A stretch of 64,000 bases of DNA from a plasmid. The translations under genes and the position numbers were made by a program. Positions 1-55,607 of this stretch are shown here, piece by piece. The stretch is taken from the sequence record NZ_AP019754.1. One strand, 5' to 3'. Below the pieces are notes generated by a model that was given only the letters and a program-made list of their open reading frames with translations, searched no databases and was not told the origin of the DNA. How positions within the stretch are numbered: the stretch's first letter is position 1; each line of letters opens with the position of its first letter.

Positions 1-930
1 ATGGCAGATAAAGATAGTGAAAACAAAGCGTTACTAGAGCCTTTTCTGTCTGTGACCAAAAACAGTGGTGAAGTTATTCAGCTTCATCCCAACAAAAATA
101 ATACCGTTCAGCCCGTGGCCTTAATGCGTCTGGGACTCTTTGTTCCCACGCTTAAATCCACAGCGCGAGGCATTTCTGGTGCTATGGCTTCAACCGACGC
201 CACCAAAGAGCTTAAAAACCTCTCTCTGGTTAAAGCGGAAGGCTATGAAAAGATTACCATCACCGGTGCCAGACTGGATATGGATAATGACTTTAAGACC
301 TGGGCCGGCATTATTCAGTCTTTTTCCCGTTACCCTACACAGGGTGATACGGTAACCCTGCCTTTTATTGATTTCGTGAAGATGTGCGGTATTCCCTCCG
401 CCAACTCCTCTGCCGCATTGCGTAAGCGACTCGACGCTTCGTTACGCCGTATTGCGACGAACACTCTCTCTTTTGAAGGTAACGGTAAGGCCTATCATAC
501 GCATCTGGTACAGTCAGCTTATTACGATCGTGAAAAAGACATTGTCCGCATACAGGCTGATCCCAAGCTCTTTGAGCTGTATAACTTCGACCACAAGGTT
601 TTACTGCAGCTGAGGGCTATCTCCCGCCTTAAGCGTAAAGAATCGGCTCAGGCGCTTTATACGTTCCTGGAGAGCCTGCCGACCAACCCTGCGCCTATCT
701 CTCTTGCCCGCTTACGTATGCGGCTCAATCTTGGCTCAAAGATTACCACGCAGAATCACGTGGTACGACGCGCGATGGAACAGCTTAAAGAGATTGGCTA
801 CCTTGATTACTCTGAAGTCAAACGAGGCCGCTCCGTATTTTTCATCATTCACAGCAGAACACCGAAACTCGATGGTATCAGTAACCTGGAAGGAATCGAT
901 ACGCTCGATGACATCGATTTTGAAGACTGA
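1..930 (+). CDS. repA: RepFIB-family plasmid replication initiator RepA (iteron-binding)
   Basis: 309-aa ORF starting at window position 1. Strong resemblance over its length to my recollection of RepFIB RepA (P307/F type), e.g. motifs [45 protein letters not shown]. Immediately followed by many iterons. Confidence 0.85.
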
Positions 931-2813: not shown

Positions 2814-4013
2814 ATGGCTAACGATGATAGTCAGGTCATGAAAGTTGCTCAGCGTTCCGAACGCATGTTATTGAGCCTTACTGAACAAATTCAGGCACAA
2901 AAGCTTGAGTTGCAGGAAAACAGCTACTACCAAATTTATGCCAAGGCGGCTCTGGCTAAACTGCCAAAACTGACCCGCGCCAGCGTTGATTATGCCGTAA
3001 ACGAAATGGAAGAGAGTGGTTATCAGTTCGATAAGCGCGCTGCCGGTAGCTCGGTGAAGTACGCCATGTCTATTCAGAACATTATTGATATCTATCATCA
3101 TCGCGGCGTGCCGAAATATCGCGATCGTCATACTGAAGCCTTTACCTTATTTGTGGGAAATCTTAAAGGCGGCGTTTCCAAGACGGTTTCTACTGTTTCT
3201 CTGGCTCACGCTCTTCGGGCTCACCCTCACCTTTTATATGAAGACCTGCGCATCCTTGTGATTGATCTCGACCCACAGTCTTCTGCCACGATGTTTTTGA
3301 ATCACGAGCGTTCTGTCGGGCTCGTGGAGGCGACTGCCGCTCAGGCGATGCTACAAAACGTCACACGAGATGAGCTGGTAAGTGAATTTATCGTTTCATC
3401 CATTATTCCTGGTGTGGACGTATTACCTGCATCAATAGATGACGCATTTATTGCATCAAGTTGGGATCAGCTGTGTGCCACTCATTTGCCAGGGCAAAAC
3501 ATTCATTCGGTGTTATACGATAATGTCGTGTCTAAGCTTAAAAAAGATTACGACTTCATCTTCATCGACAGTGGCCCACATCTGGATGCATTTTTAAAGA
3601 ATGCGATCGCTGCATCCGATCTCCTGATGACTCCAGTCCCACCGGCACAGGTTGATTTCCACTCTACCCTCAAATACCTGACTCGTTTACCAGAGCTGAT
3701 TGGCATTATTGAAGAGTCGGGAGCCGTATGCCGTCTCCAGGGCAATATCGGGTTTATGTCAAAGCTCTCTAACAAAGCAGACCATAAACTTTGCCACAGC
3801 CTTGCTAAAGAAATTTTCGGCGGCGACATGCTGGACGCAACCCTGCCCCGTCTGGATGGTTTTGAGCGTTGCGGTGAGTCGTTTGACACGGTTATATCGG
3901 CTAACCCGTCAACCTATGTAGGTAGCAGTGAGGCGCTGAAAAACGCTCGTTCTGCCGCCGAAGACTTCGCTAAAGCGGTTTTTGACCGCATTGAATTTAT
4001 CCGCCTGAACTGA
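2814..4013 (+). CDS. parA: P1-type plasmid partition ATPase ParA (long form with N-terminal HTH)
   Basis: 399 aa with deviant Walker A motif NLKGGVSKT. Near-colinear match to my recollection of P1 ParA (AKAALAKLP, VIDLDPQSSATMFL, DSGPHLDAFLKNA, GFERCGESFDTVISANP). GGAG RBS 8 nt upstream. Confidence 0.9.
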   Translation: MANDDSQVMKVAQRSERMLLSLTEQIQAQKLELQENSYYQIYAKAALAKLPKLTRASVDYAVNEMEESGYQFDKRAAGSSVKYAMSIQNIIDIYHHRGVPKYRDRHTEAFTLFVGNLKGGVSKTVSTVSLAHALRAHPHLLYEDLRILVIDLDPQSSATMFLNHERSVGLVEATAAQAMLQNVTRDELVSEFIVSSIIPGVDVLPASIDDAFIASSWDQLCATHLPGQNIHSVLYDNVVSKLKKDYDFIFIDSGPHLDAFLKNAIAASDLLMTPVPPAQVDFHSTLKYLTRLPELIGIIEESGAVCRLQGNIGFMSKLSNKADHKLCHSLAKEIFGGDMLDATLPRLDGFERCGESFDTVISANPSTYVGSSEALKNARSAAEDFAKAVFDRIEFIRLN

Positions 4014-4020
4014 GGTTTTT

Positions 4021-4992
4021 ATGAGTGCGAAAAGAATAACGATCGGCAGAACCTTCAGCCAGACACCGTTAAACACAGAAAAACTCTCTGATAACCCTTC
4101 GCAGACGTTTGTTCTTGCCACAGGAAAACGTGCCGTATTCCGTTTTGAACACATTCCTGCGAATGAGATAGAAAGCAAAACCTTTGTGACCATGGAAACG
4201 AATGGTCGCGATCAGTCTGGTCTTACGCCTGACTCACTGCGGGATATTATCCGCACGATTAAGCTTCAGCAGTTCTTCCCTGCCATTGGTGTGATGCAGG
4301 GCGAACGTATAGAGATACTGGACGGCTCACGACGTCGCGCGGCAGCACTTTATTGTAAAACTGGTCTGGATATTCTTGTGACCGATGCGGTCATCACTCC
4401 GGATGAGGCACGCAGGCTTGCGCAGGATATTCAGACGGCTCGTGAGCATAATTTGCGTGAAGTCGGGATGCGATTACTGGCGCTCAAAGACGGCGGCTTA
4501 TCCCAAAAAGAGATTGCTGAAAACCAGGGCCTTTCGCAAGCCAAGGTCACCCGTGCTTTACAAGCTGCCAGCGTTCCCGCTGATTTGATCTCTCTTTTTC
4601 CTAATCAGTCAGAGCTGACTTATCCTGATTATAAAGCCTTGCTTCAGGCTGCGGATAAACTGAGTGAGACCGGGCAAACCGTCGAGGCATTGATAAACGC
4701 TGTCTCGGCTGAAATCGATGTTGTCAGAGCTCGTGATGGTTTGGCTGAGGACGAGTTAAAAAACACAATTCTGAGATTGATTCGTCAGGGCAGCCAGACG
4801 CTCGTTAAAGAACCTGAGAAAGATAAAACCACAGCGGTGGCTCTCTGGTCCTTTGCTGATAAGGATCGATTTGCGCGCAAAAAAACGCGAGGAAGAATGT
4901 TTAGCTATGAGTTTAACCGCCAGTCCAAAGAACTCCAGGACGAACTAGATAAGGTCATTGCTGAGACATTGAAGAAGTATATGACCCGATGA
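4021..4992 (+). CDS. parB: P1-type partition protein ParB (centromere-binding)
   Basis: 323 aa immediately downstream of parA. ParB box GERIEILDGSRRRAAA plus HTH region. Operon arrangement with parA. Confidence 0.85.
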   Translation: MSAKRITIGRTFSQTPLNTEKLSDNPSQTFVLATGKRAVFRFEHIPANEIESKTFVTMETNGRDQSGLTPDSLRDIIRTIKLQQFFPAIGVMQGERIEILDGSRRRAAALYCKTGLDILVTDAVITPDEARRLAQDIQTAREHNLREVGMRLLALKDGGLSQKEIAENQGLSQAKVTRALQAASVPADLISLFPNQSELTYPDYKALLQAADKLSETGQTVEALINAVSAEIDVVRARDGLAEDELKNTILRLIRQGSQTLVKEPEKDKTTAVALWSFADKDRFARKKTRGRMFSYEFNRQSKELQDELDKVIAETLKKYMTR

Positions 4993-5000
4993 AACACATC

Positions 5001-5030
5001 AAACCAGGCAAATCGATTGTCTGGTTTTTT
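5001..5030 (+). terminator. Putative rho-independent terminator after parB
   Basis: Imperfect hairpin aaaccaggca...gtctggtt followed by tttttt. Confidence 0.45.
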
Positions 5031-5059
5031 ATTTCCTCATATTTCCTTTATCCCTGTAA

Positions 5060-5120
5060 TATTCGATATCGCTATAGCGAATTTCAGGCTGAAATCGCCA
5101 AATAAATAGCCTGAAATTTA
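5060..5120. promoter_or_regulatory. parS: P1-like parS centromere: boxA inverted pair AATTTCAGGCTGAAAT plus boxB TCGCCA, with an extra boxA-like half site
   Basis: AATTTCAGGCTGAAATCGCCA at 5080-5100 is nearly identical to the P1 parS right arm AATTTCAAGGTGAAATCGCCA as I recall it. It lies directly downstream of parB, where P1 parS sits. An upstream palindrome TCGCTATAGCGA is also present. Confidence 0.7.
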
Positions 5121-5184
5121 TCTCTAAGATACTGTTTTTTAATTGTTTTGATTTTCTTTCCCAAAATGAAATTCGCTATATTTC

Positions 5185-5226
5185 CCGCCTGCCGCCTGCC
5201 GCCTGCCGCCTGCCGCCTGCCGCCTG
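5185..5226. repeat. Heptanucleotide microsatellite (CCGCCTG)x6
   Basis: Perfect tandem repeat read directly. Confidence 0.95.
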
Positions 5227-5379
5227 TGGTTTTAATGTGGTTGTCTGCCTCGGTGCTAAAGGATTTTTGATTCGACTGACCTGCTCCCCGTTGCTGGCCA
5301 CAACATGATGTTATAACAACGCGAGGACATCCCAATGAAGACAGATTTTGTACGAACAGATCATCAGTATCGCTTGCAT

Positions 5380-6330
5380 AGCCGAGGCTGGCACTTCCTC
5401 CCATAAGCATATTATTTCTGACACAAACTTTTGCGCCTGGCGTAAGACATTTAATGGCTTTGCACTCCCTGAAGTAAAACGTCTGAAGAAGAGAGAGCCC
5501 GTCTCAGGAAGTGACTTGCAGAAGTGATGCCTGAGTGAAGATGCATTACAGGTGGTTGAGCCGATAATACTGACGACAGATCGCAAGCGGGAAGCGGTTG
5601 CAGTGAGGTGTGAAGTGATGAGTCTGTCACGACCTCGTGCGTGCACGTATGCTGATTTGTTCCTGTCGACTTGCTGCCATGAGAAGCAGCCTCCGGTGGC
5701 TGATGCGCATTTTTTAGGGCGCACTATTGCGCTGCCATCCGAGCGACGGCGTTTCGGTTAGCGCCGTATAGCGGGAAGCTACGGCAACGAGAAGGCCTGC
5801 ATGTTAATCACAAGTACTTGTGATGCCTTTACCCTCTCAGCGGCCCGGGTGTTAATTGCAGGCGAGGTCGTAGAGTACGGGTTACAGAACGCCTTCCTCT
5901 GCTCCGTCTTGCTGCTCCTGGTCTGTCGTGGTCACCGTATTTCGTCATGGACGCACAGGCATCCTGACGCAGAATAAAGTGTTATATCTGCGTTGATGAT
6001 TTTACCAATGAATACCTGTCAGTTTCTCTTACCTCAGGTATATCTGGCATGCAGGTCACACGTATTCTGGACAGTATTGTGCTATTTCATGGCTATCCGG
6101 TAACGTTAAGACCAGACCAGACCAGACCAGACCAGACCAGACTCTGCACCAGCGTTTACCTGGCGGGCACTGAACCAGTGGACCTTTGCGCATGGCGTTA
6201 AGCTTCGGCTTATTCAGCCGGGCGATCAAATACCTATGGGGTTATCGAAAGCTTAAATGGTAGTTTTCTAAAGGCGTGTCAGATTAAGCCCGGGTTAAGC
6301 GAAAGTGTTCACCCAAAAAAAACATTAACG
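5380..6330 (+). mobile_element. Degraded IS3-family insertion sequence remnant (orfA/orfB fragments, multiple frameshifts)
   Basis: Translated fragments resemble IS3 OrfA (NFCAWRKTFNGF..EVKRLKK) and OrfB (VTRILDSIVLFHGYPVTLR ... WTFAHGVKLRLIQPG ... ESLNGSF.KACQ). There is no intact ORF and an (ACCAG)6 repeat is embedded. Confidence 0.5.
6111..6142. repeat. Pentanucleotide microsatellite (ACCAG)x6 within the IS remnant
   Basis: Perfect tandem repeat read directly. Confidence 0.95.
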
Positions 6331-6683
6331 ACTGGCGGAAGGACTATAAGCGTTTCAGCCTCATTCCTGAGTGATTTATCTGACGTCAGCGAGGTTAGCA
6401 GTGGGCTGGCAAAATGCTAACAGAGAAGGTAACCCAATCGACATGGCTAACGGTCTATTGTGCTCAATGCTGTGGGGGCAAATCACGTCGATGATTTTTA
6501 TTGGATGCAGTCTGCGCGATATTTACACAAACAGAGACGGATACAGCAATTTTTCGACGGCATCTCAATTAGCGGTATTGCTGTGATTGCAATAAGAGAT
6601 TTAGCAGTGTGTGGATTATCGGTGTCAGGGCGAAAGCGACGCTTTTTTCAACCCTATCTTCATGAAAAATATTGTTTTTATGA

Positions 6684-6707
6684 TGGCGATTTCAGCCTGA
6701 AATTCAG
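6684..6707. promoter_or_regulatory. Additional parS-like site (TGGCGATTTCAGCCTGAAATT)
   Basis: Same boxB plus inverted boxA architecture as the 5080-5100 site, in opposite orientation. Confidence 0.6.
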
Positions 6708-6837
6708 TCAGAGATAAAAAGTAATCCCTCGGTTTCTGAGAGAAGTCAATGCGTCAGGGTTTTGCTTTGTTATTTTTTTGAAGACGAACGTCCCGGTCAA
6801 ACTCTGGTTAAATTGATATACAGAAAATATCCCTTAG

Positions 6838-6861
6838 TTATCCACAGAAAAAGTGGATAAG
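6838..6861. promoter_or_regulatory. Pair of convergent DnaA boxes (TTATCCACA / CTTATCCAC) separated by 6 nt
   Basis: Exact 9-mer DnaA box consensus on the + strand at 6838-6846 and on the - strand at 6853-6861. It sits in an ORF-free stretch near the iteron clusters. Confidence 0.6.
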
Positions 6862-7382
6862 TTGAGAAAGCCTTAATGACAGAGACATGCGCCAATCTTT
6901 CGCCTTACTGATAGGCGTTTCAGGAGTAAGTAAGTCAAGCACATGGAGTTGGTTTCATGCCCAGATGCTAAAAAACATGTCGCAGTTTGCATCGTGACTC
7001 TGGCCTTTCGCTTAAGCGGAACAGATTAACGCCTGGCAATCGGCCTCACGTTGATAACATAACGATTTAGTGAAAACGAGCGCTGACACGACGACAGAAT
7101 GCACAGCGACAAGCTGAAGTCGGTGCAGTCATCATACAAAACCCGTTTCAGCCCAGGTATTATTCGAATAAGTAACAGACAAAGCTGTAGAGCGAAAGCG
7201 TTCTGTTAGGCGCTAATGAAAGTAAAAGCCTGATGCTGTACAGCATTTTATCAAATTCGCATCAGTGCCTGCAGCAGGAGAAAACGCCATTCCTTACAGA
7301 ACAGTGATGCCCGGGCGAAAGCTAACGGCTTCTGGCGTTGGCATGATGTTTTTACTAAATACTACAAGCTGCATTCAGGCCA

Positions 7383-8200
7383 ACCCGACGTTCACTGTAA
7401 TCTGTAAACGTAGGCCATAGGCTTGATTCTACTATGTGTGGCACTGTCACATTCCCATCCATGATGAAAAACTGATTACAGTGAATCGGCAACGAGATCC
7501 TTTTGAGATTAACTGTTATGGTCTTCACTCATAACATGCTCATGTTGGCTGAGTTTTCTTTATTTCATCCTGATGAGGCTACATCCCGCTTCAATCACGG
7601 GAACGACTTTCGATACTGATTACAGCGAATCACAACCACTGTAATCAGCAATCGCAGATGACTTGTTTGGCGATTTCAGGCTGAAATTCATACTTATCAA
7701 TGGTTTTGCTGCATGAAATTGTTGAATGCAGTCATTATGAAAACAGGCAAGCCTCGCTGGCGAGTGACCGTTTAGACAGGTTTTTTTGATCGAATCATCC
7801 AGGCTTTACATAGGTATCTGGGTTGCAGTGTACAGTGAACGGTTAAGATGCGTTGCTCACCCTGGTTAAAAGTATTCTTCACATGATGGCGGGTTGGGGA
7901 CAACTGTCTTTAACAGGCTTAAAATCGCTTTAAAGCAGATAAATGACGACTCGCCAAGAAGGGAAATCCACGTGGAGGTATTAACGTGTTTTAGCCAAAT
8001 CGAAGGAAAAATACGTCGCTGTCTTCTCAGGACGTCAACGATTTCAGGGGCGAAAATTTGCGACCGTGCCTGATTATTTAACATAATATAAAGGTTTGCC
8101 TGTGTTTTTGACGTTCAAAAAAATCATTCATCCTCTGGCTGGTTTTTATCTCCTCTTTCACTGATTACAGTGAATGCCACTTAAACGTTCACTGTAATCA
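7383..8200. repeat. Secondary iteron clusters (7 copies of the repA iteron, three as inverted pairs)
   Basis: Iteron matches at about 7383 (reverse, degenerate), 7473, 7612 with 7632 (inverted pair), and 8160 with 8181 (inverted pair). Interleaved with parS-like sites. Confidence 0.7.
7658..7680. promoter_or_regulatory. parS-like site copy 3
   Basis: TGGCGATTTCAGGCTGAAATTCA read directly. Confidence 0.6.
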
Positions 8201-8215
8201 GTAACACCTAAATGT

Positions 8216-8238
8216 TGGCGATTTCAGGCTGAAATTTA
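8216..8238. promoter_or_regulatory. parS-like site copy 4
   Basis: TGGCGATTTCAGGCTGAAATTTA read directly. Confidence 0.6.
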
Positions 8239-9096
8239 TCTTATGCACCTAATGGCAATTTGCGGCACGTATATCAGCCTTGTGTAAATGGGAGTCTTAC
8301 ACGATTTCTTTTTATGAGCAGATAGCCACTGGTTCAGCATTCAAGCCGAAAAGCGCGCAGCCTTCCTCGTTAACTGAAACTGTTAAGCCCGGCGTGGAGT
8401 GCGACTGGCGTAAGCGTTCACGAAGACAAGGCACAAGCGGCGATTCGACAACATACGTATCTCTCAAGACGAAAATGTCTTTGCCAGCGTGACCGCAGAG
8501 TGAAAGCGGTAATGGGTGAAGATGGAGAGATGAGAGTTCAGTGACAATTCATGTGTCATGCGCGTTTCAAGGCAATAATAGTCAGTGGCTATTAGCCAGC
8601 ACTGAGCTTCAGGTAAGTAAAGGGTAGGGCAGGGGGCTTTGTTACTCAACGATTCCAGAACTTCCACCAGACTACTCTGCATCACTAACGTCGGGGGCAT
8701 TTATAGCCTTTCAGCACTGTGCCACTTACGCATAAACCTGTTCGTTCAATGCCATCTGACGGTGCGGCAACTGAAGTATAAAGCGTTGGGTCAAGGATGA
8801 GAGAAGGAAAAGACGATCATAATCAGATGTTAATCATGCCGTATGATCATAATTTGTTGTGTCTTTTTTGCCGGAATAGATGCCAGGCCTGAAAACATCT
8901 GTCGTCATCTGATATATCCGTCGATAACAGCCGGTAAAGGTTCAGGTCGCTCTGCGTGGTTTGAACGGCTTTGCGCGAAATGAAACTTTGCTCCCATTGC
9001 CAGTGAGTTGCGCTGGATTAAGTACTGTCTCGAACATCATTGCGTTACCTCAATTTCTAGCCTTTTCATAACCCAGAAAATGAGGTTTATAAATGT

Positions 9097-35854: not shown

Positions 35855-35876
35855 AATTCAGCCTGAATATCGCCAT
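35855..35876. promoter_or_regulatory. Degenerate parS-like site (AATTCAGCCTGAATATCGCCA)
   Basis: Differs at 2-3 positions from the parS copies at 5.0-8.2 kb. Located about 30 kb from parAB. Confidence 0.4.
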
Positions 35877-54191: not shown

Positions 54192-54587
54192 TCAGATCAG
54201 GAAGTCATCGAGAGAACCGCCTGCATCCAGGGCCTTTTTAATAGGCGATGGTGTACGGCCCTGACCTGTCCATGATTTCTTTTCACCGTTTTCGTCGGTA
54301 TATTGATATTTAGCCGGGCGCGGAGCACGTTTAGCTTTTGTTTTAGTTTCTGTAGGTAAATCCATCAGCTCAGAAATATCGATGCCGTCATTCATCAGCA
54401 TTTCTTTATATTTAGCCAGCTTGTCTGCTTTTTCACGCAGCAGGGCTTGCTCAGCTTCTTCTTCTTCACGGCGTTCAGCGACAACGACAGAAAGCTTTTC
54501 GAGCATCTCATTTAACACATCAAGCTCAATTTCCCGGGCTTGTGCACGTAAAATACGAAGGTTATTTAATGCTTTGAGCGCATCCAT
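54192..54587 (-). CDS. hns: H-NS family nucleoid-associated protein (xenogeneic silencer paralog)
   Basis: 131 aa, colinear with my recollection of E. coli H-NS ([18 protein letters not shown]..., C-terminal TGQGRTP...[12 protein letters not shown]). Followed by about 1.1 kb of AT-rich DNA. Confidence 0.85.
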
Positions 54588-55607
54588 TGATTAATCCTTA
54601 AATTACAGCGAATATTTTAAACAGAGCCATTCTACGAAAAATATTCCCAGAAGGAAATATCTCTTCAGTCCGAAATGTACAAATTTGTTACTGTAAAGAT
54701 TATTACTGACTTTCAGAACCTGAGAAACGGCATAAAGTTTAGGAATACATTGATGTTTTAAACATATTTAAACCGCCTCATGCCAATGAAAGGCGAGCAG
54801 GTTCTACACAACATGAATTATAGAATCTCTTTTTTAAGTTAAAAAATCAATGAAAATCAAAACCTAATACCTGGCTATCTTGATTTGTCGTCACGTTGTA
54901 AACCTGGAATGATGTGATTTGTCTCGTCAGAGAGAAATGATAACGTATAGTTAATAATAGCCACCCTTAAATAAAAGCTGGTCTGAGCGGACGAAATGCC
55001 TTACTAAAAAAACCGCTATTGAGGATAACGTTTTGTTATATGTAAATCCTGATTTTGATGCCAGACATCCCTCGAACCTTCCATAACCCGACCGTTGCAG
55101 CTGTTGGCTGCTTTGCAAAGATGAGAAACGGCTTTACCCGATCTGAGAAAAATAGCATTCCGGATTCCCAATTACACAAACCCGATAAAGCAACCTGTAA
55201 CCTGTGCCAGGCTTCATGCCAGGCTGAACGTTTTCTCTGTCAACCCAACGGCCATAAGTCTGTATTATCTGAACATAAGCGAAGCGTCAATAAGGGCAAT
55301 AACGTTCACATCACCGTTGTCAATAACAGCCTTTACCCATTTTTTCCATATTGTTTAAACCTGCAGTTCACCTGTCTCAGATAATGACCGCATTATATAT
55401 AAGGAAAAAAGACATAAGCGAGTGTGAGAAATAATTCTGTTCACACAGGGGTAAAACGGATGGCTCAAAAATATCCAGGCCAGCTAATTTCAGCGTTACG
55501 TCACGCGCTCGGGTTCAGAAGTACTGTGCCCGACTTGCGCTAAAACATCTGCATTATCAACAGAATACACACATCGGCTTTTCTGACGCTTTTAAAGATA
55601 AATGTTA

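Follow-up and report, generated by a model that had tools for sequence, protein, structure and literature searches.

P1 par is the textbook single-centromere partition system, and we describe here a natural, widespread, and vertically inherited relative of it, carried by the LPP-1 ("large Pantoea plasmid") megaplasmids, in which the centromere cores are multiplied, dispersed, and joined to replication iterons. The stretch in question is 64,000 nucleotides of plasmid sequence record NZ_AP019754.1 (hereafter the window; positions are those of the window unless another record is named), for which an initial annotation had pointed to a motif repeated downstream of parB, the gene for the centromere-binding protein. 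The window covers the beginning of a Pantoea ananatis LPP-1 megaplasmid, its positions 3000 to 9000 being 97 to 99% identical to large P. ananatis plasmids, e.g., NZ_CP020944.2 from base 1. LPP-1 is a RepFIB-like iteron replicon that is vertically inherited, present at one copy per chromosome, and in the course of being domesticated (PMC12612815).

The closest described systems are those of P1 and P7, which share with LPP-1 the backbone order of origin iterons, repA, incA-like iterons, parA, parB, and parS. In P1, the helix-turn-helix (HTH) of ParB reads box A, the dimer domain reads box B, and an arginine patch is required for spreading (Funnell review). The annotated P1 record presents parS as box B1 (TCGCCA), box A1 (ATTTCAC), the IHF site, box A2 (ATTTCAA), GG, box A3 (TGAAAT) running into box B2 (CGCCA), CG, and box A4 (ATTTCAC). 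P1 has one parS, as the initial annotation had said: both the core and the 11-mer TGAAATCGCCA occur once in the complete 97-kb P1 genome, and the P7 annotation also gives one parS. Box B is identical in P1/P7 and LPP-1, and most related Pantoea species also possess a P1-like left arm (A1 plus TAACTG). What differs is number and placement. P1 and P7 have one parS and carry iterons only in incC and incA, with nine of them in incA, whereas LPP-1 has four clustered and two distal cores, 21 iterons in the incA-like array, and six more iterons beyond parB, and the sites in the window lack an intact A1/IHF arm. A single parS directly 3' of parB is the habit of the known P1par members, from which the window departs with four cores and the replicon with six.

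Within Pantoea, the nearest precedent is the P. agglomerans megaplasmid pPagL15_1. In the part of that work available to us (Lobocka laboratory, Front Microbiol 2024, PMC10999674), one P1-like parS is placed directly 3' of parB, and the ParB residues for parS binding and P1-type specificity are reported as kept in 88 Pantoea megaplasmids. The plasmid family and the site directly 3' of parB are thus common to that account and ours, but the same part of it speaks of a single parS and makes no mention of tandem, distal palindromic, dispersed, or iteron-linked sites.

Multiple parS sites are known on chromosomes, chromids, and some plasmids (Funnell review), and the literature also records multiple parS-type sites for repABC replicons, N15, and F. 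N15, with four natural IR sites (IR1-4), and F, with the 10 tandem repeats of sopC, likewise combine one ParB-family protein with several centromere sites; these are F-type SopB systems, however, with simple 16-bp palindromes that have neither box A/box B architecture nor iteron partners. The centromere sites of N15 are scattered along its genome. We found no description of multiple or iteron-linked P1-type parS sites in Pantoea or elsewhere, in a search whose scope left out the older P1par papers in subscription journals. The site that we call site 1 is already known biology, while the multiplicity, the dispersal, and the iteron pairing of the sites appear to be undescribed.

Four exact P1-type parS cores follow parB

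The repeated motif had been likened to the right arm of P1 parS and counted four times between 5060 and 8238, and comparison with the annotated P1 record bears out both the likeness and the count. The P1 A2-A3-B2 core (parS-small), i.e., ATTTCA, three unspecified bases, and TGAAATCGCCA, is present at four sites in the window, and all four are exact at 17 of the 17 specified bases. These sites, and the half-sites that had also been noted beside the first of them, are as follows:

5081–5100, plus strand: parS core 1 (A2-A3-B2), ATTTCAGGCTGAAATCGCCA, at the position of the parS published for Pantoea megaplasmids (PMC10999674)
5111–5180: extra half-sites by site 1, with CTGAAAT at 5111–5117 and TGAAAT plus TCGCTA at 5167–5180
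6684–6703, minus strand: parS core 2, inverted relative to site 1, a 17/17 match
7668–7687, minus strand: parS core 3, within a composite module at 7616–7687
8216–8235, minus strand: parS core 4, within a composite module at 8161–8235

When the longer 21-mer TGGCGATTTCAGSCTGAAATT was searched for with at most one mismatch, the matches fell at 5080–5100 (−), 6684–6704 (+), 7668–7688 (+), and 8216–8236 (+), against an expected count of 0 from 100 dinucleotide shuffles; the third copy, first placed at 7658, therefore belongs at 7668. The right arm of parS reads AAATTTCAAGGTGAAATCGCCA in P1 and GAATTTCAGGCTGAAATCGCCA in the window, and in both the inverted A2-A3 pair abuts box B (ATTTCAA-GG-TGAAAT-CGCCA in P1 vs ATTTCAG-GC-TGAAAT-CGCCA in the window). 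The half-site at 5167–5180, TGAAATTCGCTATA, is an inverted copy of 5073–5086, and the two form a 14-nt perfect inverted repeat. The left arm (A1/IHF) of site 1 is degenerate in the P. ananatis window, reading ATTTCCT and lacking TAACTG, and sites 2 to 4 have no left arm. We consider it probable, though by no means settled, that the four motifs are genuine P1-type ParB recognition sites and belong to a multipartite LPP-1 centromere that gives ParB additional places to load and may be coupled to the control of replication.

The partition proteins are of the P1 type

ParA (399 amino acids) is 77% identical to P1 ParA over 397 amino acids without a gap. Full-length ParB shares 53% identity with P1 ParB, and its residues 136–321, comprising the HTH and dimer domains, match PDB 1ZX4/2NTZ, the crystal structures of P1 ParB with parS, at E = 1e-58. 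The DGSRRRA arginine patch is kept, as are the DKDRFARK and FSYEFNR segments. The 274-kb plasmid encodes a single ParB, a single ParA, and a single RepA, and a tblastn search for ParB returned no second ParB- or VirB-like protein on it that might own the extra sites. By protein and core-site criteria, and as far as sequence can place it, the system belongs to the P1par family (type Ia ParABS of the P1/P7/pMT1 type).

The downstream cores recur in related plasmids

We surveyed one genome per species, which gave 59 loci with a ParB relative, and took up to 10 kb on each side of each locus. About 50 Pantoea-type LPP-1 loci have two to six exact cores 3' of parB. Across loci L002–L059, at least two exact cores follow parB in nearly every locus having downstream sequence, and among the Pantoea-type loci (L002–L047 and L052–L059) only four fall below two (L007, L042, L044, and L046, the last being an N-masked locus). 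On the other side, a core within 10 kb upstream of parB was seen in only one locus, a Tolumonas contig.

The arrangement of the sites differs between clades. Outside the P. ananatis and P. agglomerans groups, the majority of species have two complete parS in tandem, ∼165 to 225 bp apart, each consisting of an A1 box, a P1-like TAACTG (IHF-type) element, A2-A3-B2, and usually A4; in most other Pantoea species, the pattern ATTTCA...CTAACTG...TGAAA lies upstream of both proximal cores. The P. agglomerans group has an additional, fully palindromic site, TGGCGATTTCAGSCTGAAATCGCCA, 3 to 8 kb further on. Four cores, oriented +, −, −, −, are found in P. ananatis and P. allii. When the window was compared with P. 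allii between 5.0 and 8.3 kb, all that could be aligned was the site-1 block, the site-2 block (6629–6877), and two modules of ∼80 bp at sites 3 and 4. The persistence of exact 20-mers in DNA that has otherwise diverged points to selection and argues against relics of duplication.

Two other arrangements were seen in the survey. In Candidatus Pantoea deserta (L057, 11104–11622), four cores lie 3' of parB in direct tandem at a regular spacing of ∼167 bp, which makes a sopC-like array of P1-type units. In L050, L051, and L053 (Serratia, Erwinia, and Pantoea sp. BAV 3049), where ParB identity is 54 to 59%, box B is TCTCCA or TCCCCA and the box A pair is unchanged; these loci are probably separate incompatibility species within the P1par family.

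Sites 3 and 4 lie beside RepA iterons

The initial annotation took the extra copies to be additional ParB sites rather than chance matches, and this part stands up well, the cores being exact, shared across species, and clustered after parB; what it missed is that sites 3 and 4 belong to modules containing RepA iterons. The repeat ACTGATTACAGTGAA and its complement, found beside both sites, are the plasmid's own RepA iteron. We rejected a miniature inverted-repeat transposable element or hairpin element as an explanation of this repeat, since 21 copies of its core lie between repA and parA and another 4 at the origin. With up to two mismatches allowed, the iteron 14-mer occurs 21 times in 939–2685, 4 times at the origin upstream of repA (273,671–273,769 of NZ_CP020944.2), and 6 times in 7391–8201. 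The last six are arranged as follows:

7391–7404 (−) and 7472–7485 (+): RepA iteron pair without an adjacent parS core, ∼130 bp upstream of the site-3 module
7616–7687: composite module with iterons at 7616–7629 (+) and 7635–7648 (−, degenerate), then parS core 3 at 7668–7687 (−)
8161–8235: composite module with iterons at 8161–8174 (+) and 8188–8201 (−), a 16-nt spacer, then parS core 4 at 8216–8235 (−)

The last four iterons form inverted pairs, and the inner iteron of each pair ends 16 to 20 nt from core 3 or core 4. The two modules (∼90 bp; 8160–8244 for site 4) are 77% identical to each other, and the site-3 module is conserved in P. allii. The incA-like array at 939–2685 differs from its P1/P7 counterpart in scattering its 21 iterons irregularly over 1.75 kb, as against 9 in 285 bp, and resembles it in having two iteron orientations. 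Because RepA iterons accompany sites 3 and 4, the reading shifts from one of simply more centromere to one of centromere sites placed beside replication-control sites.

The pairing extends beyond P. ananatis. The iteron core GATTACAGTGAA is common to nearly all Pantoea-type LPP-1 loci, and in the P. agglomerans group one iteron, in an unchanged relative orientation, invariably precedes the distal parS. Across eight species of this group, the iteron and the palindrome are invariant, whereas the 32- to 34-nt spacer between them and the flanks have diverged; the spacer is 23 nt in P. conspicua and Candidatus Pantoea astica and 16 to 22 nt in P. ananatis and P. allii. In P. agglomerans, the module has become separated from the proximal sites by inserted metabolic genes and now lies ∼140 bp upstream of pagP. 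As judged from these comparisons, the iteron-spacer-parS module is a composite element conserved across Pantoea clades, its spacer not being conserved. Many LPP-1 lineages that have the tandem pair only (L018–L038 and others) show no adjacent iteron within the 10 kb sampled.

Two distal sites are retained on the replicon

The whole replicon was examined in the relative NZ_CP020944.2 (273,809 bp). In addition to the four clustered cores, it has two more sites with one mismatch each, and shuffled sequence gave none. The 11-mer TGAAATCGCCA was observed 6 times on this replicon vs 0.13 expected, so the frequency of the motif exceeds chance, a comparison that the initial annotation had proposed as a check. 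The two additional sites are:

NZ_CP020944.2 109,077–109,096: distal site TTTTCAGCCTGAAATCGCCA, inside the arnT coding sequence
NZ_CP020944.2 241,396–241,415: distal site CTTTCAGGGTGAAATCGCCA, ∼135 bp upstream of the ghoT start

The overall layout is therefore one of four sites 5 to 8.2 kb from repA and the origin and two at 109 and 241 of 274 kb. Truly dispersed sites do exist, as had been supposed, but outside the window, at ∼109 kb and 241 kb, and not at 35855, where a degenerate copy had been proposed. A sequence of that kind, GAATTCAGCCTGAATATCGCCA, is indeed present at 35855. We rejected it as a site: box A differs at one position, a 1-base insertion separates box A from box B, and box B itself reads TCGCCA in some P. 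ananatis strains and TTGCCA in others.

Both distal sites can be followed into other species. In arnT, the 22-nt block TTTCAGCCTGAAATCGCCACAA is identical in P. stewartii, where the gene overall is 77.5% identical, and the seven codons across the core are identical as well. The site upstream of ghoT is a perfect core, ATTTCACCATGAAATCGCCA, in P. stewartii, with flanks that cannot be aligned, and in P. agglomerans GTTTCAGCCTGAAATCGCCC stands in the same place, ∼160 bp upstream (L073, 615–634), with the core nearly kept. The position of this core is thus maintained in P. ananatis, P. stewartii, and P. agglomerans, whereas the intergenic surroundings are not. The gene ghoT encodes a small toxin of the GhoT/OrtT type, and control of a toxin gene by ParB is possible.

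How the extra sites may act

If the sites form a multipartite centromere, one ParB dimer would bind each core, with its HTH on box A and its dimer domain on box B, as P1 ParB biology suggests, and ParB would load as a cytidine triphosphate (CTP)-dependent clamp and then spread, as suggested by relatives such as VirB. With several loading sites over ∼3 kb and two more at a distance, the partition complex that ParA moves would be larger or more robust, which would suit a replicon of 270 to 700 kb kept at one copy per chromosome. In P. ananatis, several small sites may also compensate for the lost A1/IHF left arm, the source of the high affinity of P1 parS. At sites 3 and 4, the modules would most likely serve to bring ParB complexes onto, or next to, initiator-binding iterons outside the origin, and ParB so placed would tie copy-number control, through handcuffing or titration, to partition.

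Several considerations weigh against this account. ParB binding at all these sites is something that we infer from motif and protein similarity. P1 manages with one parS, and since even a lone parS-small is enough to partition a plasmid, LPP-1 may not need the extra sites. Site 2 carries one box A2 change in one strain (L001; relative NZ_CP020944.2), and the constraint on the outer box A is accordingly not absolute. The conservation of the module may reflect one ancestral event plus selection for something besides partition. Finally, the location of distal sites beside or inside arnT, ghoT, and, in P. agglomerans, pagP also fits a regulatory role.

The alternative that survives best, although we hold it only tentatively, is that sites 3 and 4 exist chiefly to couple replication to partition. 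ParB spread from a core or bound at it might compete with RepA on the adjacent extra-origin iterons or remodel it there, or the ParA-driven forces of partition might separate sister copies handcuffed by RepA. The modules might conceivably be a dedicated replication-segregation coupling device in a plasmid that is turning into a chromid, with initiation licensed only after the sisters have been partitioned. On this view, the conserved distal sites at arnT and ghoT could serve as added anchoring or organizing points for a one-copy replicon of ∼300 kb. A comparably speculative extension is that an enterobacterial replicon of the P1/RepFIB type would then have evolved, independently, the cross-talk so far described for Vibrio cholerae chromosome 2, where ParB2 displaces the initiator from inhibitory sites either by spreading from parS2-B or by binding directly (PMC3688505). 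That chromosome, with its RctB 39-mers, is also a domesticated iteron replicon with several parS and a ParB site by its initiator-control sites; however, its ParB and initiator families are unrelated in detail to those of LPP-1, its site is at the origin whereas the LPP-1 modules lie 2.5 to 8 kb beyond parB, and coupling there is experimental where here it would follow from adjacency and conservation.

Coupling would account for iterons standing 16 to 20 nt from cores 3 and 4, for a module kept across clades when its spacer is not, and for a module iteron core that is the resident RepA's own and identical to the origin and incA-like copies. LPP-1 is also a domesticated one-copy replicon, and the V. 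cholerae authors proposed such cross-talk in plasmids adapting to permanent residence (PMC3688505). Set against this, the evidence is positional only, the module is not universal (L018–L038 and others having no adjacent iteron within 10 kb), and neither the distal sites nor sites 1 and 2 are accompanied by iterons.

Should the sites prove to be bound, LPP-1 would be a tractable enterobacterial system in which to ask why large replicons kept at one copy have so many ParB loading sites, and also how chromid-bound plasmids tie replication to segregation, which has so far been studied mainly in Vibrio chromosome 2. The interest would be greater if the iteron-parS coupling were functional.

Less likely again is that the extra sites are transcriptional or silencing operators through which ParB acts as a KorB- or VirB-like regulator of neighboring genes. 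The positions of some sites invite this explanation: the one upstream of ghoT (∼135 bp in P. ananatis, ∼160 bp in P. agglomerans) is kept in three species, and the distal module of P. agglomerans sits ∼140 bp from pagP on its upstream side. There is precedent in overproduced P1 ParB, which silences flanking genes (Funnell review), and in VirB, a P1 ParB relative whose regulation of genes works by CTP-dependent loading at parS-like sites followed by sliding (PMC10770331); the plasmid also encodes an H-NS-family protein. The Shigella VirB/virS system resembles LPP-1 in having a P1 ParB-like protein that loads in a CTP-dependent manner at dispersed sites resembling a box A inverted repeat on a large plasmid (PMC10770331). 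VirB, however, is a dedicated regulatory paralogue without a ParA partner, whereas LPP-1 has its partition ParB only, with no dedicated paralogue on the 274-kb plasmid, and its sites keep box B. Sites 2 to 4, moreover, lie in 3.4 kb that has no annotated gene or conserved open reading frame (ORF) and in which promoter-like matches are at chance level, one distal site is within a coding region, and silencing by P1 ParB has been judged an overexpression effect that is unneeded for partition (Funnell review).

We regard it as quite improbable that the extra copies are mainly determinants of incompatibility or exclusion, titrating or mispairing the ParB-parS of incoming P1-like phage-plasmids or rival plasmids. 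Box B, TCGCCA, is the P1 specificity determinant and is identical here, and the available part of the Lobocka laboratory report infers incompatibility between P1 and a P. agglomerans megaplasmid and describes P1 lysogeny as hard to establish (PMC10999674). One parS already exerts incompatibility, however, and this explanation accounts for neither the iteron pairing nor the conserved distal positions; incompatibility toward P1-like elements is real but is probably a by-product rather than the selected function. Through partition incompatibility, these additional sites of P1 specificity matter in practice for work with P1 and P1-derived vectors in Pantoea.

Least likely of all is that the extra copies are nonfunctional relics of segmental duplication, plasmid recombination, or insertion sequence (IS) activity kept by drift: the 77% identity of the ∼90-bp modules at sites 3 and 4 implies that these arose by duplication, the region holds a dead IS3 element and simple repeats, and site 2 is mutated in one strain, but the cores are exact at 17/17 in species whose flanks cannot be aligned, copies are always kept even though their number and position differ by clade, the distal sites are kept in P. 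stewartii and P. agglomerans, and neutral 20-mers should decay like their flanks, as the copy at 35855 appears to have done.

Backbone and intervening DNA

The genes of the window run in the order repA, iteron array, parA, parB, and together with the other features of the region they are as follows:

1–930, plus strand: repA, RepB-family, RepFIB/P1-like iteron initiator, annotated so in the 98.7% identical record NZ_CP020944.2
939–2685: incA-like array of 21 RepA iterons with core CTGATTACAGTGAA, 3 on the minus strand, then 18 on the plus strand
2814–4013, plus strand: parA, P1-type partition ATPase, 77% identity to P1 ParA
4021–4992, plus strand: parB, P1-type centromere-binding protein, by P1 ParB identity and PDB 1ZX4/2NTZ match
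5001–5027, plus strand: terminator-like hairpin just after parB
5276–6450, plus strand: dead IS3-family insertion between sites 1 and 2, outside the par system

RefSeq annotates no gene from the end of parB to ∼8460, and gene annotation is also absent from the 1.9-kb interval between repA and parA. Ten ORF translations from 5.0 to 8.5 kb gave no Pfam match, Rfam returned nothing over the same interval beyond an IS1222 frameshift element, and promoter-like matches there were at chance level; the sites therefore do not lie in genes or known RNAs. Guanine-cytosine content varies only between 0.42 and 0.49 across 1 to 14 kb, and the 5- to 8.5-kb region is not distinctive.

The IS3-family insertion has 68% nucleotide identity to Escherichia coli IS3-family transposase genes. 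It is decayed, its ORFs giving no Pfam match and 5801–6240 containing stop codons, and the IS1222 frameshift element within it (5542–5657) is still recognizable. This insertion explains the wide spacing of sites 1 and 2 in P. ananatis; P. allii does not have it, and there 376 bp separate the two sites.

The H-NS-family protein of the plasmid is encoded at window positions ∼54200–54600, by homology to NZ_CP020944.2 54207–54602, and could be relevant if ParB spreading interacts with silencing. Directly past the site-1 half-sites, at 5185–5226, is a perfect heptanucleotide microsatellite, CCGCCTG/CTGCCGC, of ∼6 units, which could change in length by slippage. A (GACCA)n pentanucleotide run occupies 6109–6143, inside the decayed IS3-family insertion.

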